Source: a virus. From it: 64,000 bases of DNA. Under the pieces are notes generated by a model. That model worked only from the letters and a program-made list of their open reading frames with translations. It searched no databases and was not told where the DNA came from. The position numbers were made by a program, and so were the translations under genes. This document shows positions 41,401 to 64,000 of this stretch, piece after piece (positions within the stretch are counted from its first letter, which is position 1; each line of letters begins with the position of its first letter). The DNA is taken from the IMG/VR virus record IMGVR_UViG_3300008448_000056, positions 6,568 through 70,567 of that record; one strand, 5' to 3'.

Positions 41401-44400
41401 CGTATTGCCTCTTCTTAAAGATTTTGAGCCAACAAATACTTTAGAGGTAGAAAATTATGTAACTCAGGTTGTGCCAAGTGATGCTTCGGTAGAAGCATAC
41501 AAAATGGTTCCTGTAGATAACATAAAGCCATCAGAAAAATTAAGCGAAAAAGATAGGGCTGAAATAGATAGAATAAAAGATGCTATTAAAAATAATGAGG
41601 ACATACCACCTGTTGTTTTGGAATTCGCTCCAGTAATTGATAATAACTCAGAATATAAATTTGGTTTAGCGGATGGCCACCACAGATACATAGCTTACAA
41701 AGAATTGGGATATAATGAAATACCTTCTGCTATTATAACGTCTAGAGAGGATTATACTTTTAATACTAATGATAAGGATGTATCTACTTTATTCAAAAAA
41801 GTAGTTCCATCAGGGGTTACGCCACAAGCCCCCGCACAGGCTCCAGTTCCCTCCATCATAGAAGTAAAATCTCCAAAAGAAGTAAAACAAGGAGATACTG
41901 TAGTATGGAGAGGGGAAGAGTTTGTAGTTGATGCAGTAAACAATAAGGGTGGGTTTAATCTTCGCAATAAGAAAGAACCCACTTGGACTGTAACAGACGC
42001 AAGAATAACCGATGAAGAGTTCCAAGGTAAGCGTGGGGAAGCTGTACCAGAAGCCAAATTGGAGGTAGAGACAGCTCCAGAAATTCCAGCAGCGGCTCCA
42101 GTTCCCTCAGTTCAAACTGAACAAGTTGGTTATACTTCAAAAAATCTTCCCAAACCAATTGGCAATTTTGAAGTAGTAGAAGTTATTCCTTATACTGAAG
42201 TTGATAAAAATAAATTTAAACCAGAACAGCAATTAAAATTTAATCAAGGTGATTATTATGAACCAGTAAGAATCGTGGGGGATTCTGATTTAATTGAACT
42301 TATACAAATGGGTTCACGACTTATAAATAATCTTAAAGCTGGTTATGAAAAAAAACCTATAAATAAATACAGGAAAGAAAAACTTGAAAAACAATTCGGT
42401 ATTACTTCTTATGAGGCGTACAATAAAGCCCGACAATTAGCAAAAGACAACAGGGGTAATATTGAGAATATAATTATTATAGGTGAGCCTGTATCTGAAA
42501 TTAAATCAGAAGTTCCCGCAAAAACAACATCTGACGTAGTAGCTGATGATTTGCTTAATTTCTTAGGCATAAAGCCAGAAGGAGGTGAAGTTAAATTTAG
42601 CAAAAGAACAGGCCAGCCTGAAGTAATTAAGCCAGTTGATGAGAAAGAAAAGGAAGTAATTGACCAAATGAATGCTATGGAATTGGTCAATGAAGGCGTT
42701 GAATTGGGTGCTCCATCAACTACAAATGAAAAGATTGACGTTGACGAGTTAAACTCTCGTCTTGATACACCTTTGGCGAAAGTAAATTGGGATGATTATG
42801 AGGGAATTCCTTTTGCTTTTACCATATCTGACCAACTTCGTTCTGGGGATGTAACAAATCCTGCAACTGGGGAAGTTATTGGAGACCTTAAAGGAGGTAT
42901 CGGATTTAACGGTACTTCGGGAAATGAAGGTAATTCTTGGGCCAACACAAGTAAGGATGAGGCTGAAGCTTTATTGAGTAAAGCATTAGACGTTTACAAC
43001 GCAAATAAGCCATTGTTTGAAAAGCTTTGGGCTGAAGGTAAGCTTCCTGATGGGCATACCCCCGTAGCTGTTGTTAAAATGGCTGAAAGCTCAATACTTT
43101 CAAACGAAGCCGTATTCCGTGTTGGAATCCAAAATATAAAAACACTTCCCGAGCGTAATAGACAAAAGGCTGTAACAGTATTAACAAAAACACTAAAGCA
43201 AAAAGCTGCCCAAATTAGTAAGGATATTAAAAGGGGAGCTGATGCTAAAACTGGTGCGCCTTATAGTGAGAATACATTAAAAGCCAAAAAGAAATTATTG
43301 GCTCAATATAACAGAATATTAGATGTCGTAAACAAGTACGGGTATAAGGATATTGTAGAGGTTTTAGAAGATAGTAAACACTTCTCACTTCCCGAAAAAG
43401 CTATTATTACCGGGGAAGTATTCTATGGTGCTCCTACCCCAATAGGAACTAAGCCTATCGATATTAATAGAAGCCGCCCAAGTACTCCTGTATCTGTTGC
43501 ATTGATAGGAAATAAAAATCCTGAATTAATTAATATCGGTCGGATAACTGATTTGTTGACTGAACCTTCAATGAAGAATGTGCCCAATATGCACGTTGTA
43601 TCAATTGTAGGTGTAGATGTCAAAAACCCACAGACCACTGAAACAAATCATCCCAATTATAAATTTGGTGTTAAAGGACAATCTATCGGAGTTTTAGAGA
43701 ATCCTGTTCACATGAAGGATGCTTTTGGGGAAGCTTATGGTAGTGCCATTTCCCAAGTCACCAAAAATGAAGCTAGCAATGCGTCTATAAACGCAAAACA
43801 AGCTATGACACAGGGTATCCCTGTACAAGCTGGACTTCCTAATAGGGTCTTAAAAGGTGCTGTTGCAAAGAAAAATTTGGACGCAATAGATAAGTTAACA
43901 GGATTTTTGCGTCAAGCTTTCCCGTCTACTACATTCTTTTCTTCTCAAGAAGCTTGGGATGCAGCTATGGCTGACCCTTCAATAAAGAAAAAATTGAAAC
44001 AAGGGGAAGTAGTATATGCATTTACCACTGATGGAAACGTATTTATAAATCCAAATCTTAAAACAACAAAAGCTGCTCTTCACGAAACTGGACATATTTG
44101 GATGGAATTTGTAAGGGATTCAAATCCTGAAATTTATAAAAAGGGTCTTAGTTTAGTAGAAGGAACAAAAGAATTAGAAAAAGCCAAAGAACAATATGGT
44201 GATACTGAATTGGCTAGGGAAGAGGCACTTATGGAATTGATGTCATCGAAAGGAGACACGATTGTCAATGCTTCCCAAAAAGCTAAATTTAAAGAATGGT
44301 TATTATCCCTTTATAAATACATATCTGAAAGCTTTACATCTCTTTTAGGTTTGTCTCCAAAAGAAGTTGAAAATCTAACATTGGATAAGTTTATTGAAGG

Positions 44401-47400
44401 GATGTTGGCTGATATCTTATCTGGACGAGAGGTAACTTCAAAAAAAGTAAAAACTCAATTAAAACTTTCTGCTGAATCAAAATATGAAACAATTAAGAGA
44501 TTTATTGATTTGCAACGTCAAAAAGGATTTAGCGATGAAGATATCAGAGCTGGTATAAAAAAGGTTGCTAAATCTATATTTCTTAGTGAATCTGATGTAG
44601 ACAATTTAATGGCCGGGGAAATCCCCATAAAAACAAAAGAAGATGCCGTTCAAGAGCAAGCAGCAGGTAAAGTTCCTGTACAGCCAGAAGCCGGAGTTAG
44701 CAAAGAAGTGGAGGGAGGAGTTCCCGGAGCAAAACCTAAAGCAGCTCCCGAAGAAGGTAAAGCTGAAGGTGAAGAAGAAAAAGTAAGGGTATCTGGTATC
44801 AAGAAGGGCTTGGTTTCCCAAGAGGTATTATCAAGAGTAAATCTTAATACAGTTGGAGATAAAGAGCTTTTAGAGTCGGGAAGAGCTATCATTGAAAGTG
44901 GGGAAGTGAAGCCAAAGACTGTTGTCAATCGTGTAATTGATGGTGGTCAGGGTGTTCTTACCCCTGCTGAGGTAGTCGCTATGATTACTTATAAGGCTGA
45001 TTTAGACACTAAACAAGAAGATTTTTCTAAAGAAATTGAAAGAAGAACAAAGGCTGGGGAAGACTTAGGTGACCTTTTGGTTGAATACAAGGACTTGCAG
45101 GTCGAAATAGACAACTACGACATTGCAGCTGTTATCACAGCTCAGCAACAATCTTTGGCATTCCGTCTTCGCAGATATCTTCTTGACAGAGAGTATAACA
45201 TTAGTGTACAAATTAATCGTTACAAGCAAACAAACGGCGGAACAATCCCTGAATCTGTACTCGCTAAGTTTAATAAGCTTAATGAAACGATAAAGGATTT
45301 GCGTAAGAAGATTAAGGAGGCTGAAGCTGTTAAGTACGAAGAAGATTCTAAGGCTGCTATGCAAAACATCATTGAAGATGTAGAGCGTGAGAATCAGGCT
45401 AACGGTCCTAAATTATATACAGAGCAAGAGCTTGAGGATAAAGTTAAAGAAGGAGTTCAGAAGGAAATTGATGGTATCTACGCAAAGATGCCAGCTGAAA
45501 AGAAAAGCAAAGCTCAACGAGTTGTAGATGCTCTCGATAATATTCAACGTAAACTTCGTAGTAAAACATATGATGCTAGCTTAGGAGTTCCCGTAGCTTT
45601 CATTGATGCGGGAATTACTGCAATCAAGAATGCTATCAAGCTTGGTATAGAAGTAGAAAAGGCTATTGAGATTGGAATTAAAACAATCAAGGATAAGCTC
45701 AATGGTGCTAAGTGGGATAAGGAGGCTGACTTCCGTAAGGATATGATGGAAGGTTTTAAAGAGGAAGGAGTTGATGTTAAAAAAACAAAAGAAGTAAAGG
45801 CTAAGATTAATGATGATGGTACAATAACAATTCCAAACAAAGACATCCGTGATTTTGTATCTCAGGGGATTGAAGATATTGATGATTTGGCTGATGCTAT
45901 ATTAAATAAGTATCAAGCAGAACTTCCCGGCATATCATCAAGACAAGTAAGAGATGCCATCACCAAGTATGGTAAAGAAGTATCACAAACAAGAGATGAT
46001 ATTTCAATAAAGCTTGGAAGAGCGAAGAGAGTCGGAAGATTGCTTTCAGAACTTGAGGATTTAAGAACTATGGATAAGGGTGCTTTCTTGTTGAAGTACC
46101 AAAGAGTTAAGCCAGCCCAAGACAAGATATCTGAAAGAGAGAAGAATCTCAAATATCTCATTCGTCAATTGGGGCGGGAAATTATGGGTGATGAGCCACT
46201 TCCCGACAACTATGACGAACAAAAAGCCCTTGATACAGCAAAGAATAGGGTTGGCCGTAGAATCGAAGAACTTAGAGACAAAGTAAGAAGAGGTGATTTC
46301 TCTAAAAAGCAAAAACGCAGAGTTCAGGCTGACCAAGAACTATTGGACCTTCAGACTCAACTTGAAAATGCTAAATCTCAATTCGACTTGGAGCATGAAA
46401 AGAATGAGCAAAAGAATAAGAAGTGGTATCAGAAAGCTGGCGATTTTGTATTAGAGCTGTTTAGCGGAATACCAAGAACACTGGTTACTGGTTTTGACCT
46501 TGGTATCGTGTTTACTCAGGGTATACGAAAAGTATTTACCAATCCTCGGATGTCTGCGAAGGCATTTGTAGAGGCTGGTAAGCAGTTCTTCTCAGAATCT
46601 AGACAAAGAAGAATGGAGCAAGAGCTTAAATTGTCTGGTTCTTACGCATTGATTAAGAATTCGGGTCTTGCAATATCGGAGGGGGCTGAAAAAGCATCTG
46701 CCCAAGAACAGATATTTATTGTCAATTATGTAAACTTAATTTGGGATACATTCTCAAGAGTTATAACATTGAATTACAAGCCGGGAACTGATTTCGTAAA
46801 GGCATTAAATCCTTTCAAGGCTTCCCAAAGATTCTTTGATGGCTACTTAAATTACATAAGAATAAATTCATTCCTTGACTTGTCGAATGCTATCGACAAA
46901 GGCGGATATATGCCTGAAACTCATCCTGAAATTTACAAAGCTGCTGCTGAATTTGTAAATACTACTACTGGTAAAGGAGCAAAGAATATTCCAAAATCTC
47001 TTGGTTTCTTAATGTTCTCTGCATCCAAAGTTGCATCTGAATTAAAACTATATACACCTTATGCATTTTATTATTACGCTAAAATGCCTAAAGCTGTAAG
47101 GAAAAGAGCTATGTTGGAGTTTGGAACATTCGCTTTGAGTTTTGGTACAACTATGTTCTTAATGAGAGCTGCACTTGGCCAAGGTCAAGGCGGTGAAGAT
47201 GATGATGAATTTTGGGATATCAATAGCAGTAATTTCTTGACATTTAAGTTTGGGAATCAGCGGGTATCATTTGCGGCTGGTGCTCGTCCAACACTTGTGT
47301 TTATGGGTCGATTGTTTAGTGGTGTGTATGTCGACCAGTATGGTCAAGAATCAAAATTGGGTGAAAGAACGGGTAAGCAAATTAATACTAGGTTCGACCT

Positions 47401-48001
47401 TATTGTTAGGTTCTTTACTGCTAAAGCGGCTCCAGTTCCCGCAGCTGTCATACAATACCTAGACAAGAAAGCTGGCGTAGAGGTAGAAGATAATGTCTTC
47501 CAAAATCTAGTCCTTCCCATGTGGCTTCAGGACTCACAAGAATTGTACGCTCAGAATCCAAAAGAAATAGGGGCCCTTTATACCCTTCTTTCACTTATTG
47601 GGGCAAACATAAGAACCGTAGAGGAGTATACTCAGAAAGAACATAAGGTCCCTAAAAAGATAATATACAAGGAACAAATATTACCGTCGGGAACTAGAGA
47701 GCGGGAAGTGACTTTAACTGATGAGCAAAGAGCTGAATTCCAAAAAATATTTGACCAAAAATTTAAAGAGAATATTGACAATATACATAAGTCTGAAGCA
47801 TACAAAAAGTTGAAAGGTAAAAATGATAGAATGCTTTTTGATGTAACATTTGGCAAGAAGGCTAAGGATGATGCTGAGACTGATGCTATAAATTTATTGG
47901 AAAGAATATATACAAGTGAATTCAAGAAGTTCCCAATAATAAGAGAAACCCCAGAAGAGAAAGAAATAAATAGAATTCTGAACATAGGGGAAAAGCGGTA
48001 A
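38468..48001 (+). CDS. giant polyvalent ejected protein (ParB/Srx-like and zincin metallopeptidase domains)
   Basis: IPPVVL...LADGHHRYIAYKELG; VFINP...ALHETGHIW...REEAL; long coiled coils; hydrophobic helices near both ends. Confidence 0.75.
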   Translation: MAENTYTGQNEDPKYRKKVYDILSSNFEDFKLSESDFYKKLDSDTGYAPKVYKVLKDNFSDFQKPEKDFMSLVGPSKKKGLFGEITTYVGQLQKEAGEALGGVKKGLETVAATAAHYERKVPRISGPVEEKVKVEVEEKLDPNDLVGSLQKTMPPLFKQTVPTSDATYIRPNAVNIFNEQERQRPEVIKGLEREKKLKDLKAAFTSDVNLSTTQLMRATGRSANEIQGASREELAQMVREGNQSDRLAAQTVADARDIRQAFTESENLEQAAIKLAALKDPQVARQIEITASKLPARNLGEVVSGTRNVMGDPKSLFGEATLGRMIYQLASNPVAVQEIEKNPELKKQFREAIPLLINKYPSFGKSYLGNVISQKMEDMGMNNALLNIVTKEETDKVVDELVSEGKMSPLEIQFYKDNMREGGIRNFAKTIIGEQLYKTPGLIERTAESAVSAIKSTGAGAAEVTGLRPLLVGERAMVARDVAARDEAVNIRPRGTINEISAFGGDFLGQVLPTGLLGKGLTAAKVFQNPDNAIKALFGLQAFGNYMPQARAMFPGEGLKQRAYAGILAGLELATENIFRDKKVIDGLLGKVKPEIASVINKFTAKEISAATAREAVEGTIAKAIRSVPQFTKYFAKGVGENTFEETVTQLGQQLTDGVFTGKKFNDWVNGEELLETARTSALGSTFIAGLSARADMLASKGMTAKMVYDMAEKPEYWIEKIRENAETDPDLQADAEDKIANLEYATKVRQDLEKTNLTEKQKIKFLINALDAHVKGKTSQSITDPVLKKRAEQEAKVVEQQQEAILNGDDQGEIEGDLSDEVVEPAGEVAPEVPAAPKEITEQEYSDFIDKGIVIPERLNDIAQKVKNQEKLSEREQEIFTDKTADINKIIAEEVKPEVPQTVKQLRAAEQAEYAAMADPNDEIKRQEIYDKYDKLITPLLEKEKEVPAAPTEGVGAKPQVRSNTDGGKYVKYNPDDVLPLLKDFEPTNTLEVENYVTQVVPSDASVEAYKMVPVDNIKPSEKLSEKDRAEIDRIKDAIKNNEDIPPVVLEFAPVIDNNSEYKFGLADGHHRYIAYKELGYNEIPSAIITSREDYTFNTNDKDVSTLFKKVVPSGVTPQAPAQAPVPSIIEVKSPKEVKQGDTVVWRGEEFVVDAVNNKGGFNLRNKKEPTWTVTDARITDEEFQGKRGEAVPEAKLEVETAPEIPAAAPVPSVQTEQVGYTSKNLPKPIGNFEVVEVIPYTEVDKNKFKPEQQLKFNQGDYYEPVRIVGDSDLIELIQMGSRLINNLKAGYEKKPINKYRKEKLEKQFGITSYEAYNKARQLAKDNRGNIENIIIIGEPVSEIKSEVPAKTTSDVVADDLLNFLGIKPEGGEVKFSKRTGQPEVIKPVDEKEKEVIDQMNAMELVNEGVELGAPSTTNEKIDVDELNSRLDTPLAKVNWDDYEGIPFAFTISDQLRSGDVTNPATGEVIGDLKGGIGFNGTSGNEGNSWANTSKDEAEALLSKALDVYNANKPLFEKLWAEGKLPDGHTPVAVVKMAESSILSNEAVFRVGIQNIKTLPERNRQKAVTVLTKTLKQKAAQISKDIKRGADAKTGAPYSENTLKAKKKLLAQYNRILDVVNKYGYKDIVEVLEDSKHFSLPEKAIITGEVFYGAPTPIGTKPIDINRSRPSTPVSVALIGNKNPELINIGRITDLLTEPSMKNVPNMHVVSIVGVDVKNPQTTETNHPNYKFGVKGQSIGVLENPVHMKDAFGEAYGSAISQVTKNEASNASINAKQAMTQGIPVQAGLPNRVLKGAVAKKNLDAIDKLTGFLRQAFPSTTFFSSQEAWDAAMADPSIKKKLKQGEVVYAFTTDGNVFINPNLKTTKAALHETGHIWMEFVRDSNPEIYKKGLSLVEGTKELEKAKEQYGDTELAREEALMELMSSKGDTIVNASQKAKFKEWLLSLYKYISESFTSLLGLSPKEVENLTLDKFIEGMLADILSGREVTSKKVKTQLKLSAESKYETIKRFIDLQRQKGFSDEDIRAGIKKVAKSIFLSESDVDNLMAGEIPIKTKEDAVQEQAAGKVPVQPEAGVSKEVEGGVPGAKPKAAPEEGKAEGEEEKVRVSGIKKGLVSQEVLSRVNLNTVGDKELLESGRAIIESGEVKPKTVVNRVIDGGQGVLTPAEVVAMITYKADLDTKQEDFSKEIERRTKAGEDLGDLLVEYKDLQVEIDNYDIAAVITAQQQSLAFRLRRYLLDREYNISVQINRYKQTNGGTIPESVLAKFNKLNETIKDLRKKIKEAEAVKYEEDSKAAMQNIIEDVERENQANGPKLYTEQELEDKVKEGVQKEIDGIYAKMPAEKKSKAQRVVDALDNIQRKLRSKTYDASLGVPVAFIDAGITAIKNAIKLGIEVEKAIEIGIKTIKDKLNGAKWDKEADFRKDMMEGFKEEGVDVKKTKEVKAKINDDGTITIPNKDIRDFVSQGIEDIDDLADAILNKYQAELPGISSRQVRDAITKYGKEVSQTRDDISIKLGRAKRVGRLLSELEDLRTMDKGAFLLKYQRVKPAQDKISEREKNLKYLIRQLGREIMGDEPLPDNYDEQKALDTAKNRVGRRIEELRDKVRRGDFSKKQKRRVQADQELLDLQTQLENAKSQFDLEHEKNEQKNKKWYQKAGDFVLELFSGIPRTLVTGFDLGIVFTQGIRKVFTNPRMSAKAFVEAGKQFFSESRQRRMEQELKLSGSYALIKNSGLAISEGAEKASAQEQIFIVNYVNLIWDTFSRVITLNYKPGTDFVKALNPFKASQRFFDGYLNYIRINSFLDLSNAIDKGGYMPETHPEIYKAAAEFVNTTTGKGAKNIPKSLGFLMFSASKVASELKLYTPYAFYYYAKMPKAVRKRAMLEFGTFALSFGTTMFLMRAALGQGQGGEDDDEFWDINSSNFLTFKFGNQRVSFAAGARPTLVFMGRLFSGVYVDQYGQESKLGERTGKQINTRFDLIVRFFTAKAAPVPAAVIQYLDKKAGVEVEDNVFQNLVLPMWLQDSQELYAQNPKEIGALYTLLSLIGANIRTVEEYTQKEHKVPKKIIYKEQILPSGTREREVTLTDEQRAEFQKIFDQKFKENIDNIHKSEAYKKLKGKNDRMLFDVTFGKKAKDDAETDAINLLERIYTSEFKKFPIIRETPEEKEINRILNIGEKR

Positions 48002-56501: not shown

Positions 56502-56532
56502 AAAGCCCCACCCGTAGAAACGGGCGGGGGTA
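56501..56532. terminator. hairpin at the convergence of late and early transcription
   Basis: AAAAGCCCCACCCGT-AGAA-ACGGGCGGGGGT; T-tract on the minus strand. Confidence 0.65.
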
Positions 56533-56805
56533 AACTAACACACTATGAAAACAAAACCTAACTAAAATATCATTATGATTTCCCCTATCATCCAAGACCA
56601 ATATGCAACACCAATAAGTAGGGAAGTCGCGCCTAAGAGCATAGATAGTATTTTCATGTTGTTTCTTTGTTTTTGGTTAGCCAATCATAAAAGTAATCTG
56701 CAAGTTTTATCACATCGTCTGCGAATCCCTCATGTTTCTGGGTTGCCAATATAAGTGCGAGTTGTCGGTCTGTTAGATTGCTAACAATGATGTTTTGTTT
56801 TTCTT

Positions 56806-57021
56806 TCATACTACTTTTGTTTTGTCGGGGTTCTCGCCTTTGTAGTTGTCCAATGAGGCAACAATCTTCCCAGTGATTGGGAACTTGTCAAGGAACTGCT
56901 TTGGGGAGTAGGACTTCCCCTTATACACATACTTACGTTCTCCGTTAGTATCGTATACATATCCCGCAGTCCGATGAGCGGTCATGTTCTTGCAGTATTC
57001 TGAATAGGTTAATAGCTTCAT
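56806..57021 (-). CDS. hypothetical early protein
   Basis: Operon-packed ORF. Confidence 0.55.
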   Translation of the reverse strand: MKLLTYSEYCKNMTAHRTAGYVYDTNGERKYVYKGKSYSPKQFLDKFPITGKIVASLDNYKGENPDKTKVV

Positions 57022-57230
57022 TGGTTTATCTTTTTTACTTTACGATAGACGGGGAATCCAAACACATAATAGGTTGTCTTTTTGTACCTATCAATCTCGG
57101 GGAAATTCCATACATCGAAATACGTCACGAACTTGTAATAGATTTTCCTATGTGCTATTCGTTCGTGCTTTCTGATGACCGATGGTTTGTCGTGCCAGTA
57201 GGTCATGTCGTCGGGGAAGTGGTTGTCCAT
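57018..57230 (-). CDS. hypothetical early protein
   Basis: ATGA overlap with the next gene. Confidence 0.55.
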   Translation of the reverse strand: MDNHFPDDMTYWHDKPSVIRKHERIAHRKIYYKFVTYFDVWNFPEIDRYKKTTYYVFGFPVYRKVKKINQ

Positions 57231-57248
57231 TGGGTTAGTATTTAAGGG

Positions 57249-57512
57249 TTAATTGTAATTTATTTTTGGCGGTTGAGTTTCGTAAATGATGACATCAAAA
57301 TCCCCTGCCACTCGAGATTCAATTTTAGTTGCAAGTTCCATTGCTTTTGCAAATGCCTTGGGTTCGTAATAGTAGTCATCAACTGAGGCATCAACGTCAA
57401 AGCTGAAACAATCAACGAATCTAAGCGTTTCTTCATTGTCTTGCTCACGATAGTATACCGAGTACTTGGGCTTTTCCCCGATACGTTCAATAAGTTTTAC
57501 TACTGCTTTCAT
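57249..57512 (-). CDS. hypothetical early protein
   Basis: AAAAACAAAACAT leader. Confidence 0.6.
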   Translation of the reverse strand: MKAVVKLIERIGEKPKYSVYYREQDNEETLRFVDCFSFDVDASVDDYYYEPKAFAKAMELATKIESRVAGDFDVIIYETQPPKINYN

Positions 57513-57609
57513 ATGTTTTGTTTTTAAGATTCGGGATATAGTTTATTGTATATGTGGTTAAGTGCTGACCCGATTGCAGCGATTCCCGTCCACATTAGTA
57601 TGAATTTTA

Positions 57610-57837
57610 TTAGCATGGTAGGTCATGTATGATTGCTTGTTTTTGTTTTGGGGTTAACTTATCCGTGAGGTCGATGCCGATACCAGCTATCACTACCTCG
57701 ACCGATAGTAGGTTGATGTCTTCTTCCACGAATGTGTGGATGCCGTGGCACTCCTCGGTACGTGTGGTTCGGGAGTACTCGTAGGTGACAAGGAGTTCTG
57801 CTCCTTCGATGATGTCGGTTTTGAAGTTTGTAGTCAT
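57610..57837 (-). CDS. hypothetical early protein
   Basis: AC-rich leader and upstream CACAATAA..CGTTA motif. Confidence 0.6.
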   Translation of the reverse strand: MTTNFKTDIIEGAELLVTYEYSRTTRTEECHGIHTFVEEDINLLSVEVVIAGIGIDLTDKLTPKQKQAIIHDLPC

Positions 57838-57904
57838 GTGTTTTGTTTTTTATATAACGGGAATTGGTGAGGATTATTGTGCGAGGAATTCATAAAAATA
57901 CTGT

Positions 57905-58123
57905 CTACGTCTTGCCTCGTCGATTTGTTTTTTCAGTAGTTCTATTTTGTTGCGAAGTGCGTACGGATTTGGGGTTTTGCCCGATTCCAATTTGCGAATG
58001 AGTGCTTTGAGTTGTTGTTCTTTTTGTGCCGTTGTCATTGATTGGGTAATTTAATAGTTGGTAAATGTGTGTTATCCATTCGTTGTACGAATTGCATGGG
58101 TGTTCGGGGTATGTGGTTTTCAT
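57905..58123 (-). CDS. hypothetical early protein
   Basis: ATGA overlap with the upstream gene. Confidence 0.4.
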   Translation of the reverse strand: MKTTYPEHPCNSYNEWITHIYQLLNYPINDNGTKRTTTQSTHSQIGIGQNPKSVRTSQQNRTTEKTNRRGKT

Positions 58124-58689
58124 CTTAGTGATTGTTTAAGTTCATCAATTGTGATTCCTGCTTCTTCGCATAGCCATTCGGTGATTGCCTTTACCTCGGA
58201 TTCCCTACAAATAACATCCGATGAGGTGCTGAATACATTGGACGTGGGGGCGAAGGCGAAGATGATTTCGTACGGGCATTCCAATCTGCCTTCCAATACC
58301 TCATCAACAAGGCGGTTGAATTTATGCTTCCAAGGTACGTCATCGTAGTTACCCGTTGACCACCCGCTTGCTAGGTTTGTGTATCCGTCACCGATTTGTG
58401 AGTCCCAGTACCCCCGCCATCCGTCAGTACGGACGTACTTGAATTCAGGAACTGCCTTGCAGTCGGCTTCCTCAAAATATTCGGTATCTTGGTATCCGAA
58501 TTCAGAACACCATAGGTACTTGTCTACTTCCCCTCGCAAAGTGGTAATAACTTGGCATGGATATTCCCATGCTGATTGCTCACAAGATTCGCATATCTCT
58601 TCGCCCGAGCGGGTGAGGTAACTGCCATCGCAATTCGTATCAATCTCCGATTGACAAGATGCACATTTGATGATGTTTGTTGGTTCCAT
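58120..58689 (-). CDS. acidic protein with N-terminal Zn ribbon
   Basis: CASC...CESC; YVRTDGWRGYW; PTSNVFS. Confidence 0.65.
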   Translation of the reverse strand: MEPTNIIKCASCQSEIDTNCDGSYLTRSGEEICESCEQSAWEYPCQVITTLRGEVDKYLWCSEFGYQDTEYFEEADCKAVPEFKYVRTDGWRGYWDSQIGDGYTNLASGWSTGNYDDVPWKHKFNRLVDEVLEGRLECPYEIIFAFAPTSNVFSTSSDVICRESEVKAITEWLCEEAGITIDELKQSLR

Positions 58690-58719
58690 TGTGTGTGTTT
58701 TTTATGGTTTGGGAATTGG

Positions 58720-58938
58720 TTATTTTGTATCAATTGAATATAGATATTCGAGCATACATTCGTATTCGGGTTGGTTGGGGTCATTGTATTTTGAATCGCA
58801 ATACTTCCCGTACTCATCGCATACAATACCATATAATTCATCGTACTCAATCTCGTTTGGGATTACCGCGTTGTACAAATTACTAAACAAGAAGAATGAA
58901 TAGTCGCAGTAAGGTCGGTTCAATGATGTGTTGTTCAT
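58720..58938 (-). CDS. hypothetical early protein
   Basis: AAAACAAAACACC leader. Confidence 0.55.
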   Translation of the reverse strand: MNNTSLNRPYCDYSFFLFSNLYNAVIPNEIEYDELYGIVCDEYGKYCDSKYNDPNQPEYECMLEYLYSIDTK

Positions 58939-58956
58939 GGTGTTTTGTTTTACTGG

Positions 58957-59157
58957 TTATAAAATCATCAGAGATTCAATCTCGTTTTGTAAATACTTGG
59001 TTGCTTGATGAAGTACCTCTTCATCCGATATCCTCAATATATGACCCGAACGAAGTTCGATGTATAGATTGCCGGAATCAGTTAATACTCGGATGTCGTT
59101 TTCTTCCGCAATGGTGTCCAAGCTTAATTTTGCGTAGTTAAGTGTTTTGCTGTTCAT
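58957..59157 (-). CDS. hypothetical early protein
   Basis: AC-rich leader and promoter motif. Confidence 0.6.
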   Translation of the reverse strand: MNSKTLNYAKLSLDTIAEENDIRVLTDSGNLYIELRSGHILRISDEEVLHQATKYLQNEIESLMIL

Positions 59158-59215
59158 AGTGTTTTGTTTTATTGATTAACGAATAAGTAAACAATGTTAT
59201 TGTGTCAGGGAAGTG

Positions 59216-59506
59216 TTAAAGAATAACCCGAATGCGTCTGCCTTGAGTTCCCTCCCATTCAACATTCAGTCCGTTGTTTTTTAGAATGCTCACAATCTCT
59301 TCCCCATTCCCAGCCCAAGCAAGATATACATCTCCGTCTTTGTCCATCCGTTGTTTGTCTTGTGCATGGTAAAATACTGCCCGTTCTGATTTGTCATCGG
59401 GGACTGATGCCCAACCGCACGATTGACAACATTTGTGATTTTGACGTGCGAAATAACCTACTTTGCGTAGTTCTTTGAATGCTTTAGTTAATTGTTCTTT
59501 TTTCAT
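59216..59506 (-). CDS. DUF6891-like protein
   Basis: AFKELRKVG.FARQN..CCQSCG...VFYHAQD...YLAW...GL.VEWEG. Confidence 0.6.
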   Translation of the reverse strand: MKKEQLTKAFKELRKVGYFARQNHKCCQSCGWASVPDDKSERAVFYHAQDKQRMDKDGDVYLAWAGNGEEIVSILKNNGLNVEWEGTQGRRIRVIL

Positions 59507-59545
59507 GGTGTGTTGTTTTTTATATTAACGAATAAGTGTGTCCGA

Positions 59546-59779
59546 TTATTGTGTTAGGGAAGTGTTAATGCTATTTTTTATTTTCCGTACGTACGCAATT
59601 GAGCATTCTGATACGTACGCAAGGAAGTTGACCGAGTGGTCGGTAGTGGAGATTAGTTTCTCCAATACTTCCCGCTTACTACACTCATCACCGCTCAGTA
59701 CTTTGTCAGCGATGAACTGCTCAATTGCTCTTGCTCTCAATGTAGGGAAAGGGTTGTTAAGTGTTGGGTTGTTGTTCAT
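59546..59779 (-). CDS. hypothetical early protein, possible HTH C-terminus
   Basis: Start MNNNP after the leader; SVNFLAYVSECSIAYVRKIK. Confidence 0.5.
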   Translation of the reverse strand: MNNNPTLNNPFPTLRARAIEQFIADKVLSGDECSKREVLEKLISTTDHSVNFLAYVSECSIAYVRKIKNSINTSLTQ

Positions 59780-59807
59780 GGTGGTTTGTTTTATGGTTTG
59801 GGAAATG

Positions 59808-60026
59808 TTAAGAGTGTGCATCGAATTCTTCGTACAATTCCTCTGCGGTCTTTTCATTGAACGTATCATCGTCAAAATAGTAGGCGATTTGTTTATCTAA
59901 TTCCTCTGCATCTCCTTCGAAATTAAGTTCAGCGAGAAGGTCTCCGAGTGTCTCGGTTGCGAATAAGTATCCGTTGTGGCTCTTTACTTGGTAGGTTTCG
60001 CCACGGAAATTGATTGTGTTGTTCAT
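59808..60026 (-). CDS. acidic hypothetical early protein
   Basis: Start MNNTINF after the AC-rich leader. Confidence 0.55.
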   Translation of the reverse strand: MNNTINFRGETYQVKSHNGYLFATETLGDLLAELNFEGDAEELDKQIAYYFDDDTFNEKTAEELYEEFDAHS

Positions 60027-60077
60027 TGTGTTTTGTTTTTTGGTGGGAAGTGTTGACACTCCCCACCGATTAGTTAA

Positions 60078-60248
60078 TTAGAAATCCGATACTTTGTACT
60101 GAACATCATACACATTAGTTGGCTCGTAATACTCATCGTAAGCCTGTTCTAACGCAATGGTGTTAGCATCTTCGATATTGGTTGCCTCTACTTCAATTTC
60201 TTTCATCGCATATTCGATGCGGATTACTTGTACTTTGTACTTTTTCAT
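60078..60248 (-). CDS. 56-aa DpnD/PcfM-like protein (not in ORF track)
   Basis: MKKYKVQV...EIEVEATNIEDA..IA. Confidence 0.6.
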   Translation of the reverse strand: MKKYKVQVIRIEYAMKEIEVEATNIEDANTIALEQAYDEYYEPTNVYDVQYKVSDF

Positions 60249-60285
60249 GGTGTTTTATTTTTTATATAACGGGAATTGTTCCCGA

Positions 60286-60489
60286 TTATTGTGTTAAGAT
60301 GGCTTCGTTTTTTAAATAAAATAACACCCTAACATAAAAATGTATTTGATTTATGTTGTCTATCGCTCCGTGTTCGCTTGATAAATCATTTATCGTTTCG
60401 CTTAATTTATTTTTGAGTTCGTTTATCCCTCCCAATTGCTGTATACCATAATTTGCATAATCGCGAATTTCTTTGTTAGATTTTTTCAT
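60286..60489 (-). CDS. hypothetical early protein
   Basis: AC-rich leader; upstream TTTG-N20-TAACTTAC promoter variant. Confidence 0.55.
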   Translation of the reverse strand: MKKSNKEIRDYANYGIQQLGGINELKNKLSETINDLSSEHGAIDNINQIHFYVRVLFYLKNEAILTQ

Positions 60490-60575
60490 GGTGTTTTGTT
60501 TTTGTGGTTATTAATGTAAGTTACTAAACAACAATATTGATACCAAATTTATTTTGTTAGGGAAGTGTTAAGGTA

Positions 60576-60612
60576 GAAAATGATGGGGGTCAGTACTTCC
60601 CGACCCCCATCG
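60576..60612 (-). terminator. intrinsic terminator after the DUF932 gene
   Basis: GATGGGGGTC-loop-GACCCCCATC-ATTTTCT. Confidence 0.7.
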
Positions 60613-60620
60613 GTCACACA

Positions 60621-61562
60621 CTATGCAAGAGATAAGATGCTATTGAACGCTTGGTTGTCAATTCCCAACCCAGTGCCAACATATTTGGACTCAAGGCGGG
60701 CGTTGTCACGCTTGGGTACGGGTAGCTTGTGGGAAGTGTAGTGTGTCACTCCGCTGAATAGACCCCACAACGTGTCACCCTTGCTACGCATCTCCGTAGC
60801 GATTGATTCCAAGAGTTCGCCCGAGCGGTTGATAGCATATGTGCTATATTGTTCCTTCGCTTGGGAATTGGTGAGGGTGATGTCCACGTCCGTTACTTCC
60901 CGAACAATACGAGCGATGTTTTCCTTGGTCACGGCAACCTCCGAGAGGCGGATAAATTGGTCGAAGATAGACCGCTCTTGGTCAGCAATTCCCACCACTT
61001 GGCGAATGGATGCCTCTACCTTATCGTGGAGCGACTGGGTGTGCTTTGCCGACTGCTGAAGTTCCCGACCCGCTGATGCGAACGTGTTCCGGCAACATAT
61101 GGTGAAGTTTACCGCTCCCCATTTAAGGGCAGTCGTGCCATCGTGTCCGTTGATGCCTGTCACGAACCCTTTCACGGAAGTGCCGTTTTTACCGATGCCT
61201 GTAATCTCGTTGCCTGTGTTCAATTGGAGGTAGACCTTCCCGCCCCCATTGAATGAACCGCCCGAATGGATGCTATAGCCTGTCTTCTCGGAGATGCGGA
61301 TGAGGAGTTCAGCCAGTTCGCTATTTTGAAAGGGAACATAGCCGTCCTTACAGGTAGCGAAGACCTTGCTATTGTCCTCCCGAACGATACCGAAGAAGCC
61401 TGTGCCGTTGCCATTGGGGAGGAGGAGTTCCTGTTTGCTCACTTCCCACCGCAACCCATAACGGTCAAGGAGGTCGGCTACCGCCTCACGATTTTCGGGG
61501 TTGGATACTTGCGTTCCGCTGAACGCGTTGCTGAGGATGTTGTCTGCGATTGTGTTGTTCAT
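60621..61562 (-). CDS. DUF932/TIGR03299 phage-plasmid family protein
   Basis: GLRWEV, YVPFQN.E, GSFNGG.KV, NGHDGT, ICCRNT, KHT, TLWGLFSGVT.Y.SH. Confidence 0.85.
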   Translation of the reverse strand: MNNTIADNILSNAFSGTQVSNPENREAVADLLDRYGLRWEVSKQELLLPNGNGTGFFGIVREDNSKVFATCKDGYVPFQNSELAELLIRISEKTGYSIHSGGSFNGGGKVYLQLNTGNEITGIGKNGTSVKGFVTGINGHDGTTALKWGAVNFTICCRNTFASAGRELQQSAKHTQSLHDKVEASIRQVVGIADQERSIFDQFIRLSEVAVTKENIARIVREVTDVDITLTNSQAKEQYSTYAINRSGELLESIATEMRSKGDTLWGLFSGVTHYTSHKLPVPKRDNARLESKYVGTGLGIDNQAFNSILSLA

Positions 61563-61714
61563 GGTGTGTGTTTTGTGTATTAACGAATAAGGGTGTTTTG
61601 TTATTGTGTTAGGGAAATGTTAAAGGGAAAATTTGTCCGCTATCAAGTTGACCGCTTTAAGGGCGATGAAGAGGACTACGATGAGCCACCAAGGGGAGAG
61701 GTCTTTTTGCTTTT

Positions 61715-61942
61715 TCATTGGTTTGTGTTTTTAGGGTATATATAACTTGAGTTATTGGTGATAAATCCTTCAAAGTGTGCTTCTACACGTTTGTTCCATC
61801 TTTTTTCCGCTATAGAATGAACTCCCGTATACGCTGAAATGAAGTAGAATCTATCGGTGTCCTTTCTCACTTGTATGCCAGAAAATGCAGTATAAACGTG
61901 CGTGGTATTTGCTATCAATTTAGCAATGTTCTCTTTTTTCAT
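61715..61942 (-). CDS. hypothetical early protein
   Basis: ATGA overlap. Confidence 0.55.
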   Translation of the reverse strand: MKKENIAKLIANTTHVYTAFSGIQVRKDTDRFYFISAYTGVHSIAEKRWNKRVEAHFEGFITNNSSYIYPKNTNQ

Positions 61943-62148
61943 TTTGTGGGGGTTTGTTGGTTTTCTAAATAGTCATCGAACTGCTCACCCAATCCGAGAA
62001 TGTTAATAGCCATAGCCAGTCCGTTGTATGTGTCTTGCAACCACCTATGGGTGGCTTTGGTGTTTTTCTTGCTCAATTGGGTGTCAAGGTGCTTCCCTTG
62101 GGCGAATAGGTCAAGGATTTGCTCTTGTGTTACGTTGTACTTTTTCAT
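61939..62148 (-). CDS. hypothetical early protein
   Basis: AAAACACACACACC leader. Confidence 0.6.
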   Translation of the reverse strand: MKKYNVTQEQILDLFAQGKHLDTQLSKKNTKATHRWLQDTYNGLAMAINILGLGEQFDDYLENQQTPTK

Positions 62149-62168
62149 GGTGTGTGTGTTTTAAGGTT

Positions 62169-62214
62169 TGGGAACTGGGAGCGGAATCGAACCGCTCCTT
62201 CAACCATTCAGTTC
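62169..62214 (-). ncRNA. tRNA-like minihelix 1 (T arm plus acceptor, ends C-CCA)
   Basis: GAACTG AATGGTTGAA GGAGCGG TTCGATT CCGCTCC CAGTT C CCA. Confidence 0.6.
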
Positions 62215-62236
62215 GGGGGGGGTATTCCCTCTTAAA

Positions 62237-62386
62237 TTAAAGAAAACGAGCATAGATACGGCGTAAGCCTAACTGACCGCCGAACTTAAAAAGAGCCAAA
62301 ATGAGAAGCCCAATGCCGAATGCAAAGCCAATACTTCCCAAGATTACAATTGCTTCAATTGGTAATGATGCGATGATTTTTTTCAT
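62237..62386 (-). CDS. 49-aa membrane peptide (not in ORF track)
   Basis: MKKIIASLPIEAIVILGSIGFAFGIGLLILALFK... Confidence 0.55.
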   Translation of the reverse strand: MKKIIASLPIEAIVILGSIGFAFGIGLLILALFKFGGQLGLRRIYARFL

Positions 62387-62463
62387 AACGTGTGTGTTTT
62401 ATTGGTTAACGATTGGTTGGTGTGTTTTATTGTGGGGGAAGTGCTGACACTTCCCCCGATTAA

Positions 62464-62643
62464 TCAATCAAGGTCGTTGATGCGTTCACTATCATCTACC
62501 GACTCCGTTATGTATTCGAAGTGATGCTTCTTACATAACTTCTCCAAGGCGGGGAGACAAACCGCATACGTTTCCTCGTCATCGAAAATAGCGACCAATT
62601 CTGCGTACTTGGGGCTGTCCATTTCGAAATAGACCTTTACCAT
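62464..62643 (-). CDS. hypothetical early protein
   Basis: Start MVKVYFE after the AC-rich leader. Confidence 0.6.
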   Translation of the reverse strand: MVKVYFEMDSPKYAELVAIFDDEETYAVCLPALEKLCKKHHFEYITESVDDSERINDLD

Positions 62644-62663
62644 AGTGTGTGTGTTTTGATGAG

Positions 62664-62709
62664 GAACTGATGGCGGGAACGACCCGCCTTCGCTCATTGC
62701 TATCAGTTC
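62664..62709 (-). ncRNA. tRNA-like minihelix 2
   Basis: G AACTGAT AGCAATGAGCGAA GGCGG GTCGTTC CCGCC ATCAGTT C: 7-bp plus 5-bp stems and a 7-nt loop. Confidence 0.55.
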
Positions 62710-62729
62710 TGGGAGGCACGACTAATTAA

Positions 62730-62921
62730 TTAATCTCTTGCGATGTAGTAAACAATTCCCTTCTCATCATCAATCTCCAATTCGTGGTCAATTACGTTGA
62801 TGATGTTTTGGGAATCTTCGTGAGATATGTTCATTCTCACCTGTTCCCGACCTACACTAAGATAGAGTGTGTAGGTAAATGTGTTTAAATCGTAGGACAC
62901 TTGGTCAATTGTTGCTTTCAT
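62730..62921 (-). CDS. hypothetical early protein
   Basis: Leader begins at the hammerhead cleavage site. Confidence 0.6.
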   Translation of the reverse strand: MKATIDQVSYDLNTFTYTLYLSVGREQVRMNISHEDSQNIINVIDHELEIDDEKGIVYYIARD

Positions 62922-62937
62922 AACGTGTGTGTTTTAT

Positions 62938-63012
62938 GGTTAAGACAATGAAGCGGGGGAAGTGTTCCCTCCGCTTCCGTGTTTCGGCTATTTTAAGCCT
63001 CATCAGTTAACC
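62938..63012 (-). ncRNA. hammerhead ribozyme
   Basis: GGUUAA CUGAUGA GGCU-UAAAAU-AGCC GAA ACA...GAAGCGG/CCGCUUC...UGU C|UUAACC: full consensus core, stems I-III, GUC site at 62944. Confidence 0.88.
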
Positions 63013-63249
63013 TCGGTACAACAATTGCAAATCTGCTAATGGGTTGCCGTTTTTGTCGCTCATTGTGTATATCCTTTTACCTTTGAATGGTAGAGGTGCT
63101 GGTTCGTTTCGGTCAGACCCTATGTAGTGAATTCCCGCAAAATTATACAACCAAAGGCTGTTTTTTTCTGAGGTCAATCTTATTTGCGAATTCGGTAAAA
63201 GGTGTTGGGCTTTGATTTTTGCAAGGTGCAAAATTTGCTCGGTAGTCAT
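63007..63249 (-). CDS. 80-aa first early protein, bracketed by two hammerhead sites
   Basis: AC-rich leader; its last codons GGT TAA form stem I of the ribozyme. Confidence 0.65.
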   Translation of the reverse strand: MTTEQILHLAKIKAQHLLPNSQIRLTSEKNSLWLYNFAGIHYIGSDRNEPAPLPFKGKRIYTMSDKNGNPLADLQLLYRG

Positions 63250-63313
63250 ATGTGTGTGTTTTATGGTTAAGACACGGATTCAAGTTTAACCCGAAGGTCA
63301 GAGGCTTGGTCAT

Positions 63314-63385
63314 TCAAAGAGCGGTGGGGTATCATCCCCTCATCAACAATACAAATATACACCCGATTAACTACTAAACAATAGA
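63314..63385 (-). promoter_or_regulatory. early promoter with boxB-like hairpin and boxA-like site
   Basis: TTG-N19-TATATTTG (63359-63352); GGGG-ATGATA-CCCC; CGCTCTTTGA (63323-63314). Confidence 0.6.
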
Positions 63386-63500
63386 AAAAGCCAACTATTT
63401 TGTTAAAGAAAAGTTAACAAAAACGGATAAAATTGACCAATTTTGTATGTGGTTGATAATCAATGATTTATAAGGTCAAAAAATGCCATTTCCTCAAATT

Positions 63501-63862
63501 TCGATTATCTCGGTGCGGGTAAGGGTGTAATACCAAAAAAAAGATACGCGAAATTTGGGGTGTTTCCGTGCGTTTAAAACGATTTTGATTTACAATGGAA
63601 TTTCTGTTAAAATATTCCTAAACAACTAAACAAGGAATATGACAAATATGTCACAATTGAGATTACCAAATATTTTTTGCGTATTTGCAAAACTTTAACA
63701 TTTGGGGTGTTTTTTAAGTAAAAATACTTAGCCGTTTATTTGCCCAAGGTTCGATTATCTACTAAACAATAAGGGTAAGATACCACAAAAAAGATACGCG
63801 AAATTTGGTGCGTTTACGTGCGTCTCATTCGATTTCGATTTGCCAAACATTTTCTGTTAAAA
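63501..63862. repeat. two imperfect 112-bp direct repeats
   Basis: 63501-63612 and 63751-63862 align without gaps (TCGATTATCT...AAGATACGCGAAATTTGG...TTTCTGTTAAAA). Confidence 0.9.
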
Positions 63863-64000
63863 CTTTCCCAACATTTCCCTTAACAGACCTTTAATACTTC
63901 CCCTCTTCCCATACCATAACAAACATACACCAAAGGGAGAAGCCGAGCCATTCCCCCCGACCCTTGGCATCCCGACCCCGACCTTGCCCCTCCACTTCCC

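Follow-up and report, generated by a model that had tools for sequence, protein, structure and literature searches.

Among the described systems closest to the one treated here are the hammerhead ribozymes of prophages. In the available text of Perreault et al. (2011, PMC3088659), these flank individual genes or small groups of them, and long phage transcripts are suggested to be processed into gene-length messenger RNAs (mRNAs). In the haloviruses HF1 and HF2, the same text places a hammerhead cut 13 nucleotides (nt) before an early start codon, and the mapped 5' end lies within 3 nt of it. Type I hammerheads are also found in the 5' untranslated regions (UTRs) of RNA mycoviruses, where, going by the accessible part of that report, translation initiation requires them (PMC13725137). 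What the hundreds of hammerheads in bacteria and phages do biologically was called still largely elusive in what is accessible of a 2019 review (PMC6765202). The present work concerns a stretch of viral DNA of 64,000 nt (the window), which covers bases 6568-70567 of the 70,567-base-pair (bp) IMG/VR virus record IMGVR_UViG_3300008448_000056. A block of small open reading frames (ORFs) on its minus strand carries, just before many of the start codons, a hammerhead, two minihelices resembling part of a transfer RNA (tRNA), a repeated bipartite box or a hairpin, and a common A/C-rich leader.

Processing signals with the shape of a tRNA are known in the plant mitochondrial t-elements and the MALAT1 mascRNA, and RiboJ is a synthetic ribozyme insulator. 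The tRNA punctuation model of mitochondrial polycistrons is set out in the available text of PMC8601606. Ribonuclease (RNase) P cuts the precursor of the phage C4 antisense RNA (P1/P7), the M3 RNA of phi80 and some polycistronic mRNAs, according to the accessible portion of another source (PMC11143913). In T4-type phages, the composite promoter-terminator motifs named PeSL mediate modular shuffling, as the available parts of two reports describe (PMC2839356, PMC4122927). On the side of translation, the ribosomes of Flavobacterium johnsoniae do not recognise Shine-Dalgarno (SD) sequences, and the accessible text of PMC6847099 gives as positive determinants a run of A at -14 to -11 and A at -3 and -6.

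Our analysis suggests that the block is probably made of exchangeable small-gene cassettes, insulated by interchangeable RNA elements that would each generate a new 5' end ahead of an SD-free initiation region. The genes are called early here, as inferred from the gene layout.

56562..63249, minus strand: block of about 24 small ORFs of 30-313 amino acids (aa) with A/C-rich, G-poor leaders

The Hammerhead Ribozyme and Its Relatives

A preliminary description of this DNA had placed ribozymes before two start codons, ATG 63249 and ATG 62921. The one before ATG 62921 is borne out as a type I hammerhead motif.

62938..63012, minus strand: type I hammerhead motif, recognised by its full core, its fold and its relatives
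62922..62943, minus strand: 22-nt leader UUAACCAUAAAACACACACGUU before ATG 62921, by its sequence the predicted cleavage remnant, with a 5'-OH

The motif reads GGUUAA-CUGAUGA-[GGCU UAAAAU AGCC]-GAA-A..U-C/UUAACC, the slash marking the predicted cut. The core is complete, with CUGAUGA, GAAA, the A15.1-U16.1 pair and C17, and there is a long stem III and a GUC at the cut. Folded to minimum energy, the sequence takes the expected form of a three-way junction (-30.5 kcal/mol, z = -4.26), and cleavage is predicted between C62944 and U62943, 22 nt before the ATG. The stop codon of the upstream ORF (63007-63009) falls in stem I. Stop codons lie in the 5' part of the ribozyme (62998-63012), with one UAA each in stem I and loop II and two UGA in the core. 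When compared with the Rfam model Hammerhead_3, the motif gave only a misaligned partial match of 16 bits (cut-off 48.5). Permissive Rfam scans of 57000-64000, 62100-63400, 63235-63365, six related loci and L021 1800-2140 gave matches at chance level only.

Relatives of the block were collected through one of its proteins.

60621..61562, minus strand: gene for a DUF932 protein of 313 aa, the anchor for finding relatives (PF06067, E-value 1.1e-22)

This protein led to 9 viral loci, and an alignment of these led to 80 metagenome and 27 viral loci at 33-96% identity, some records being present in both sets. The survey of relatives covers 5-6 kilobases (kb) on either side of the DUF932 homologues, and loci are cited by their L numbers. 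Hammerheads were sought with a descriptor that demands CUGANGA, GAAA and H17 together with minimum stem lengths, which are 4 bp for stem I and 3 bp for stems II and III, stem III being closed by A-U. In the first 160,681 bases of related loci it matched four times, where a shuffle gave 0.15-0.5. In 107 related loci (708,142 bases) there were 28 matches, 22 of them distinct, compared with 0.2 per shuffle, and every one of the 28 is on the gene strand, with none on the other. Among the 22 aligned hammerheads, the core is invariant save for N7 (U, A or C) and H17 (C or A). Stem II occurs in five complementary versions (GGCU/AGCC, GCCG/CGGC, GUUC/GAAC, GGAU/AUCC and GGCUU/AAGCC), stem I shows a double change once (GGUUAA/UUAACC to GGUGAA/UUCACC), and stem III varies in both length and sequence. 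RNAalifold, run on a MAFFT alignment of the 22, recovers stem I only, with the gaps inconsistently placed.

The position of the hammerheads is as regular as their core. Locus L021 has four of them (2506-2579, 2838-2911, 3093-3166 and 3369-3420), 250-330 nt apart, and each is followed by UUAACC, an A/C leader and ATG. In 26 distinct contexts of a hammerhead and its ORF, the leader is 22 nt long in 14, 23 in 6, 19 in 2, 24 in 1 and 34-35 in 2, the remaining one being a type III hammerhead. This last, in L007, has one extra base after A9 and lies at the end of a noncoding leader, about 440 nt long, with the first ORF following closely.

The tRNA-like Minihelices

The tRNA mimics that had been noted before ATGs 62643 and 62148 turn out to be minihelices built of an acceptor-like stem and a T arm. 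They are not tRNAs: ARAGORN finds no tRNA gene in the window, and the minihelices, 42-48 nt long, have neither cloverleaf nor anticodon arm.

62663..62709, minus strand: minihelix 1, with an 8-bp acceptor-like stem, 13-nt linker, 5-bp T stem and 7-nt loop, then C (48.6 bits)
62171..62214, minus strand: minihelix 2, with a 6-bp acceptor-like stem, 10-nt linker containing GG, 7-bp T stem and loop UUCGAUU, then CCCAA (57.6 bits)

The first ends 19 nt before ATG 62643 and the second 22 nt before ATG 62148. In both, a continuous 3' strand of 13 nt serves acceptor and T stem and is followed by C.

A loose descriptor of this shape gave 11 matches against 8.05 per shuffle and was dropped for a covariance model. 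The MAFFT alignment of the minihelices with their flanks (A1) was structurally inconsistent and was replaced by a second alignment (A2), from whose five copies the model (R1) was built; in it 100% of 55 cells are paired and 8 of the 11 pairs show double changes. R1 found a sixth copy on which it had not been trained (L007 3260-3306; 36.1 bits, E-value 5e-6). In 98 further loci (622,071 bases) it gave 38 matches at E <= 0.1, every one on the gene strand. An alignment of 30 distinct rows has 98.8% of its 322 cells paired, and both sides have changed in 10 of the 11 pairs. Not one of 500 shuffles reaches the observed percentage of pairing or the covariation score, and the number of doubly changed pairs is reached by 3; slid registers pair 32-52% of cells only.

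Further details come from the 29 complete distinct copies. The stack is 13 bp in 24 of them, 12 bp, as in tRNA, in 3, and 11 bp in 2. A C follows the helix in 27, and the linker contains GG in 24; this GG possibly replaces the one in the D loop that makes contact with the T loop. As to the loop itself, 13 copies have UUCGAUU, 7 AGCGAUA, 4 UUCGACU, 3 UUCGUUA and 2 another sequence. Substrates of RNase Z have a U-initial trailer after the discriminator, and CCA aids RNase P. The trailer after the C of the minihelices is UCA, UAA or CAA, and C followed by CCA is seen only in the type of 62171-62214. An A-rich leader comes next, with the ATG within about 17-35 nt. The largest number in one locus is seven, in L123.

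ARAGORN, applied to 27 loci with minihelix matches, predicts two ordinary tRNAs, neither at a match. These (L085 9945-10014 and L124 2125-2200; Ser-ACT and Ala-CGC) lie on the gene strand in the same type of small-ORF region, and full tRNAs may sometimes fill the same punctuation slots. The family has no Rfam match. It appears to be new, as does its interchangeability with hammerheads; the literature searched, which did not extend to subscription journals and supplements, gave no account of tRNA-like minihelices that punctuate phage operons or swap with hammerheads.

The Bipartite Box and the Hairpins

Six ATGs had been said to follow a CGTTA promoter. A bipartite box, ACAATAA-N13-15-CGTTA, is indeed found before all six, and these are the only copies in the 70.6-kb genome, all of them on the strand of the block and 18-22 nt before an ATG; the promoter role attached to it is an interpretation.

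62407..62433, minus strand: box with N15, before ATG 62386
61581..61607, minus strand: box before ATG 61562 (DUF932 gene), preceded by UAACAUUUCCCUAACACAAUAA with TAA in all three frames
60267..60292, minus strand: box of the CCCGTTATATA type, before ATG 60248; the TAA of the box is the stop codon of the upstream ORF
59526..59552, minus strand: box before ATG 59506
59177..59203, minus strand: box before ATG 59157
57855..57880, minus strand: box before ATG 57837
62434..62457, minus strand: 10-bp GC-rich hairpin GGGGGAAGUG-UCAG-CACUUCCCCC, without U tract, directly before box 62407-62433 (-19.9 to -20.5 kcal/mol, z = -3.76)
60042..60067, minus strand: 11-bp hairpin immediately 5' of the leader of ATG 60026 (-20.4 kcal/mol, z = -5.81)

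The last of these is the strong hairpin that the preliminary description had seen before ATG 60026. The unit of hairpin and box at 62407-62457 has seven distinct related copies. In the 720,186 bases covered, 89 boxes lie on the gene strand and 8 on the other. Distinct copies number 70, and in 59 of these the distance from CGTTA to the ATG is 17-21 nt. The spacer of 15 nt keeps nearly the same length but not the same sequence. Eight distinct boxes begin at the U-tract tail (UUUCUACC) of the terminator of the DUF932 gene. Transcription would have to restart there, and it is on this ground that a promoter is best argued. We would give the box roughly an even chance of being a promoter, for whichever polymerase. 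Another possibility is a cleavage site at the RNA level, which would leave 5'-UUAA..., the same start as that of the hammerhead product. A scan for sigma-70 promoters gave 20 sites against 18.2 in shuffles, no better than chance. In the crAss-like phage phi14:2, the early transcripts of the virion polymerase have no common upstream motif in the part of that preprint that is accessible (bioRxiv 10.1101/2020.03.07.982082).

Interchangeable Elements and Mosaic Gene Content

The preliminary description held that the generators are of interchangeable types, and comparison of orthologous genes agrees with this. An element was assigned to the ORF starting at most 45 nt downstream, and all plus-strand ORFs of the loci were clustered by blastp; pairs with identical protein and identical 24 nt upstream were counted once. 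L001, L002, L005, L012-L018, L099-L102, L105, L106, L109, L112 and L113 were excluded (own record, helper, duplicate contigs), and "none" means that none of the four detectors fired. In the window, the tRNA-like element stands before both ORF3 (ATG 62643) and ORF5. Other members of the ORF3 family follow a hammerhead (L021 and L024) or, in 5 cases, none of the elements; those of the ORF5 family in L025 and L027 follow the CGTTA box. A 51-aa family is preceded by a hammerhead in 2 cases, the box in 3 and none in 1; a 47-aa family by a hammerhead in 1, the box in 2 and none in 3; a 70-aa family by a hammerhead in 2 and the box in 1; and a 166-aa family by a hammerhead in 1 and the tRNA-like element in 1. 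Upstream of the DUF932 family itself are 10 boxes, 1 hammerhead (L079), 2 tRNA-like elements (L085, L040) and 1 hairpin. Since hammerhead, tRNA-shaped RNA and box take the same slot before orthologous genes, one shared job is suggested for them, namely to provide a 5' end upstream of the standard leader.

The genes between the leaders are exchanged as well, which supports the cassette structure that had been proposed. In blastn comparisons of the block with its two closest relatives, L003 and L004, homology stops at leaders and intergenic elements (e.g., 63253, 62926 and 60486). ORFs 1-6 are replaced by other genes, and six cassettes (60486-58963) are absent from both relatives, with only the repeated boundary motifs matching there. 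Thus a repeated intergenic motif lies at the breakpoints of insertion, deletion and replacement between close relatives, as is characteristic of PeSL. One of the boundary sequences, UAACACUUCCCUAACACAAUAA, occurs at 61601-61623, 59548-59570 and 59199-59221 and contains TAA in all three frames. As the boundary modules open with stops in several frames, any insert upstream would be closed.

The A/C-rich Leader

The common leader that had been described is statistically real. Against an expectation of 1.71, the window contains AAAACAN7ATG 11 times, a count that none of 100 shuffles reaches, and 8 of the 11 copies are on the minus strand at 58936-63262, within the block. AAAAC beginning at -17 to -9 is found at 18 of 25 candidate early starts, 4 of 34 late (plus-strand) starts and 3 of 9 starts in the replication module. 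In the 24 nt upstream, the early starts have A.51, C.29, G.04 and T.16, and the late starts A.47, C.12, G.12 and T.29. A peak of A at -13 to -11 is common to early (.92/.96/.88) and late (.68/.76/.71) genes, and A at -3 has a frequency of.64 in early starts. The early leaders thus have what SD-less initiation in Bacteroidota calls for: A-rich -14 to -11, A at -3 and -6, no purine-rich SD and low structure. The suggestion that the arrangement suits SD-independent initiation in Bacteroidetes agrees with the determinants reported for F. johnsoniae in the available text of PMC6847099. Judged by its composition, the common leader is foremost a putative initiation region of Bacteroidota type, extreme in form and unstructured.

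Successive cistrons of the window meet at 23 junctions, which comprise 7 overlaps of the ATGA type, 5 gaps of 11-30 nt with the leader only, and 11 junctions with an element. Overlapping and closely spaced cistrons would stay coupled.

The 5' UTR of the First ORF

63250..63345, minus strand: 5' UTR of the first ORF, with hairpin GGGGAUGAUACCCC at 63326-63339 and the remnant GUC-UUAACC at 63265-63273
63352..63359, minus strand: TAnnTTTG box TATATTTG, which matches in sequence the -7 box of Bacteroidota; putative host-type promoter of the first transcription unit

The other ribozyme of the preliminary description, before ATG 63249, is rejected: the site reads UUGAUGA, has no GAAA strand, and folds no better than its shuffles (z = -0.07). 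A separate Rfam search of the 131 bases before this ATG matches no family. With the true hammerhead it has in common only GUCUUAACC and the leader, and its sequence looks like that of a hammerhead whose core was lost. It is part of a promoter-proximal 5' UTR, which begins with a small hairpin about 10 nt after the TAnnTTTG box, which stands only at 63352-63359. The region 63250-63345 is conserved in L003 and L022 and absent from L004; TATCTTTG boxes equivalent to that at 63352-63359 occupy the same place in L003, L004 and L021.

Several relatives have a structured noncoding leader of 270-440 nt before the first ORF, starting with a small hairpin right after the TATCTTTG box.

L021 1824-2110; L020 200-356; L023 1050-1210; L024 690-847; L007 2370-2740: structured noncoding leaders of relatives

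These leaders end in GUGUC-UUAACC without a recognisable hammerhead core or, in L007, in the type III hammerhead. Compared with the c4-2 RNA model, they give a weak, non-significant match (15.9 bits, E-value 1.9). They may yet hold an unrecognised ribozyme.

Genome Setting

The phage is most likely crAss-related, with a host of Bacteroidota type. The plus strand carries genes for the terminase, the portal, virion proteins and the tail spike at 6.5-55.8 kb, among them a 1238-aa protein (32773-36489) with the crAss muzzle domain PF25731. On the minus strand, primase/helicase and replication initiator genes lie at 0.3-5.3 kb. The small-ORF block, running from about 63.35 to 56.5 kb, stands apart from these other minus-strand genes. 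Only two Pfam matches are found in it, DUF932 (60621-61562) and DUF6891 (59216-59506), and blastn of the block region against GenBank phages gave no match.

60582..60611, minus strand: terminator-like hairpin with the tail AUUUUCU, end of the first transcription unit
56506..56529, minus strand: terminator-like hairpin with U tract, end of the block, converging with the late plus-strand genes

The block looks like two transcription units, because of these U-tract hairpins and the TAnnTTTG box at 63352-63359; at about 60510-60611 the terminator is followed by a host-like promoter region.

An ORF of 3177 aa on the plus strand (38468-48001), two genes downstream of the crAss muzzle homologue, was considered as a virion RNA polymerase that might read the CGTTA box. 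The idea is unsupported. Searches of Pfam, PHROG and PDB gave no match, and the sequence lacks DxDxD; should the ORF encode a cargo protein or virion polymerase, the type would be an unrecognised one. The 189-aa ORF (58120-58689), which has CxxC pairs and belongs to a family widely conserved among the relatives, and the 96-aa DUF6891 ORF (59216-59506) both look cysteine-rich and zinc-binding. Upstream of the first promoter, a 250-nt tandem duplication occupies 63488-63871, with a 102-nt core 79% identical. A 20-nt box, TATTGTTTAGTAG(A/T)TAATCG in minus-strand reading, occurs at 63364-63383 and 63752-63771; together with the duplication it could represent repeats of promoter or regulator sites. 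At the very end of the record (63953-64000) lies a G-rich stretch (minus strand GGGAAGTGGAGGGGCAAGG...) that is 87-90% conserved in L003 and L004, where it stands upstream of the early promoter regions; it may mark the genome end or a regulatory site.

A Working Model and Its Alternatives

From these features we infer the following course of events, biochemical steps included. Host-type promoters would give polycistronic RNA in two terminator-bounded transcription units. Each cassette would open with a stereotyped, unstructured, G-poor A/C start region that has a run of A at -14 to -11, A at -3 and no SD, and about half of the cassettes would also carry an element that makes a new 5' end 19-24 nt before the ATG. 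A type I hammerhead is expected to cut itself; its body, with the 2',3'-cyclic phosphate, would stay with the upstream RNA, and the downstream RNA would begin with a leader of 22-23 nt bearing a 5'-OH. A minihelix would be excised by host RNase P on the 5' side and/or by RNase Z, or another nuclease acting on 3' trailers, after the conserved C. The bipartite box most likely serves as an internal promoter, read by a non-primary or phage-modified RNA polymerase, and in some cases comes after a hairpin or terminator. Every such event would yield a downstream RNA with an unstructured leader of about 19-24 nt and an upstream RNA ending in a stable structure. The elements would thereby insulate the cassettes, with translation and stability uncoupled from upstream sequence, and the shared boundary sequences would supply the homology for gain, loss and swap of cassettes by recombination.

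A stronger form of the model would have SD-blind translation of these plug-in ORFan genes depend on the fresh 5' end 19-24 nt from the ATG, which three routes would supply in this freshwater or marine crAss-related lineage: the ribozyme (5'-OH), the tRNA-like element (5'-P) and the mini-promoter (5'-PPP). We find this stronger form doubtful.

Several observations weigh against the insulated-cassette model as well. Rfam gives no match at its gathering threshold over the whole window, the hammerhead included, and no loop-loop or pseudoknot contact of the kind that speeds hammerheads at cellular Mg2+ was found by eye. The pairing figures lean towards structure, the hammerhead stems being required by the descriptor and the minihelix alignment of 30 rows (A4) being fitted to its model. 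Many of the related loci are close relatives, and the counts are not of independent events. The box has neither the TTTG (-33) nor the TAnnTTTG (-7) of the Bacteroidota primary-sigma promoter, and no sigma factor or RNA polymerase gene was recognised among the phage proteins scanned. None of the four element types is found upstream of 67 of the 81 distinct DUF932 homologues. The leader motif also occurs within an overlapping reading frame (AAAAACACAAACCA-ATGA at 61718), and a free 5' end is therefore not needed for its role as start region. The junctions bear in the same direction, since 12 of the 23 in the window have no element. The earlier claim that many cistrons have their own 5'-end generator thus could hold for the 11 junctions with an element and fails for the other 12, and the idea that each cassette is made monocistronic has to be given up, as roughly every second cistron lacks a generator and must remain part of a polycistronic RNA.

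Some of these same facts can be turned into other explanations. The boundary sequences might act mainly as DNA recombination sites of the PeSL kind, or be selfish or decaying insertions, with the leader as a host-type start and RNA cutting of little effect. Homology blocks that break at the shared elements, the retention of the decayed hammerhead before ATG 63249, the half of the cistrons without any element, and the working of the leader within overlapping frames all speak for such a view. It is nevertheless improbable, as it leaves unexplained an invariant catalytic core with compensatory stem changes, the covariation of the minihelices, strand biases of 28:0 and 38:0, and the fixed distance of 22-23 nt to the ATG. 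The elements might instead serve the upstream cistron, whose 3' end they would shield from 3' exonucleases or close in the manner of a terminator, the downstream leader being a by-product. After a type I cut, nearly the whole ribozyme with its two stable hairpins remains on the upstream product; hairpins without U tracts are found at the same places, and every module begins with stop codons in several frames. This service to the upstream cistron is quite improbable given that the body of the type III hammerhead in L007 stays on the downstream RNA, and follows a noncoding leader rather than a gene. Moreover, it is the distance to the next ATG that is tightly fixed, not the distance to the upstream stop, and the promoter-like box swaps with the same elements.

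For the minihelices there is the further question of whether they are processing signals at all. They could be remnants of tRNA genes, attP-type 3' halves, or mimics with a different target, for instance a host defence factor, the CCA-adding enzyme or an enzyme that modifies tRNA. In 13 of the 29 copies the T loop has the tRNA consensus UUCGAUU, there are weak partial matches to the T arm of transfer-messenger RNA models, and two ordinary tRNA genes are predicted elsewhere in the related loci. Yet the acceptor strand on the 5' side is still there and covaries with that on the 3' side, a state that neither an attP core nor a decaying gene would preserve. A single locus can hold as many as 7 minihelices, and without exception they lie on the gene strand, with an ATG 17-35 nt further on. 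They also swap with hammerheads at orthologous genes, and no integrase was found among the proteins scanned, a partial scan that did not take in every ORF. We therefore regard a role other than processing as quite unlikely. The insulated-cassette model is the best explanation of the block at present.

Comparison with Known Systems

Hammerheads that flank phage genes are already known, and the 2011 paper, with its large alignments of hammerheads, could include members of the present group; the tRNA-like family and the three-way interchangeability appear to be the new part. The minihelix family (38 matches in 98 loci) would constitute a new type of signal for RNA processing in phage operons. Were a fresh 5' end indeed what matters, bacterial and phage hammerheads would gain a defined function, ribosome loading in Bacteroidota would be seen to depend on the 5' end, and hammerheads and tRNA mimics would be natural, modular insulator parts swapped freely by evolution. 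The arrangement would show how phages keep small early genes of fast turnover expressible whatever their neighbours, and its elements would offer natural insulator parts for the engineering of Bacteroidota.

The hammerheads here resemble those of prophages and of HF1 and HF2 as given in the available text of PMC3088659: canonical, between phage genes, with variable flanked genes and several copies per operon. In contrast to them, the present ones are of type I with one fixed stem I (GGUUAA/UUAACC), which is at the same time the start of the shared leader. They are swapped with non-ribozyme elements at orthologous genes, belong to an SD-less type of host, and are missed by Rfam.

Mitochondrial tRNA punctuation likewise has tRNA-shaped elements between coding regions, expected to be cut by tRNA-processing nucleases and setting mRNA ends. 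Here, the element is a minihelix of 42-48 nt without anticodon arm, in a DNA phage of bacteria, with a stack of 13 rather than 12 bp and with cleavage that is predicted from its sequence. The RNase P substrates C4 and M3, as covered in the accessible part of PMC11143913, are phage or operon RNAs with a mimic of acceptor and T stem that host RNase P processes; those are single regulatory RNAs or fortuitous sites, whereas the minihelices form a family, with up to 7 copies per operon, at gene boundaries.

The likeness to PeSL lies in repeated intergenic motifs beside variable small ORFs, in hyperplastic regions and at breakpoints of insertion, deletion and replacement, going by the available text of PMC2839356 and PMC4122927, and the hairpin and box unit at 62407-62457 resembles the PeSL layout in joining a stem-loop to a promoter-like sequence. 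The differences are that the box is not a recognised host promoter, that putative RNA-cleaving elements take the same slots, and that the host phylum and the mechanism of initiation are other ones. With the initiation regions of Bacteroidota (Baez et al. 2019, PMC6847099, as far as accessible), the early leaders share the lack of an SD, A at -14 to -11, -3 and -6, and low structure. They differ in being nearly free of G (G 4%, C 29%), whereas the late genes of the same phage use A/T-rich leaders.

Finally, the hammerheads of mycoviruses and RiboJ have in common with the present ones that a self-cleaving ribozyme just upstream of a coding region sets the leader and so enables or standardises translation. 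Those systems are eukaryotic and cap-independent, or engineered. The block described here would be a natural case in a bacterial virus, in which the ribozyme stands beside tRNA-like and promoter-like alternatives.

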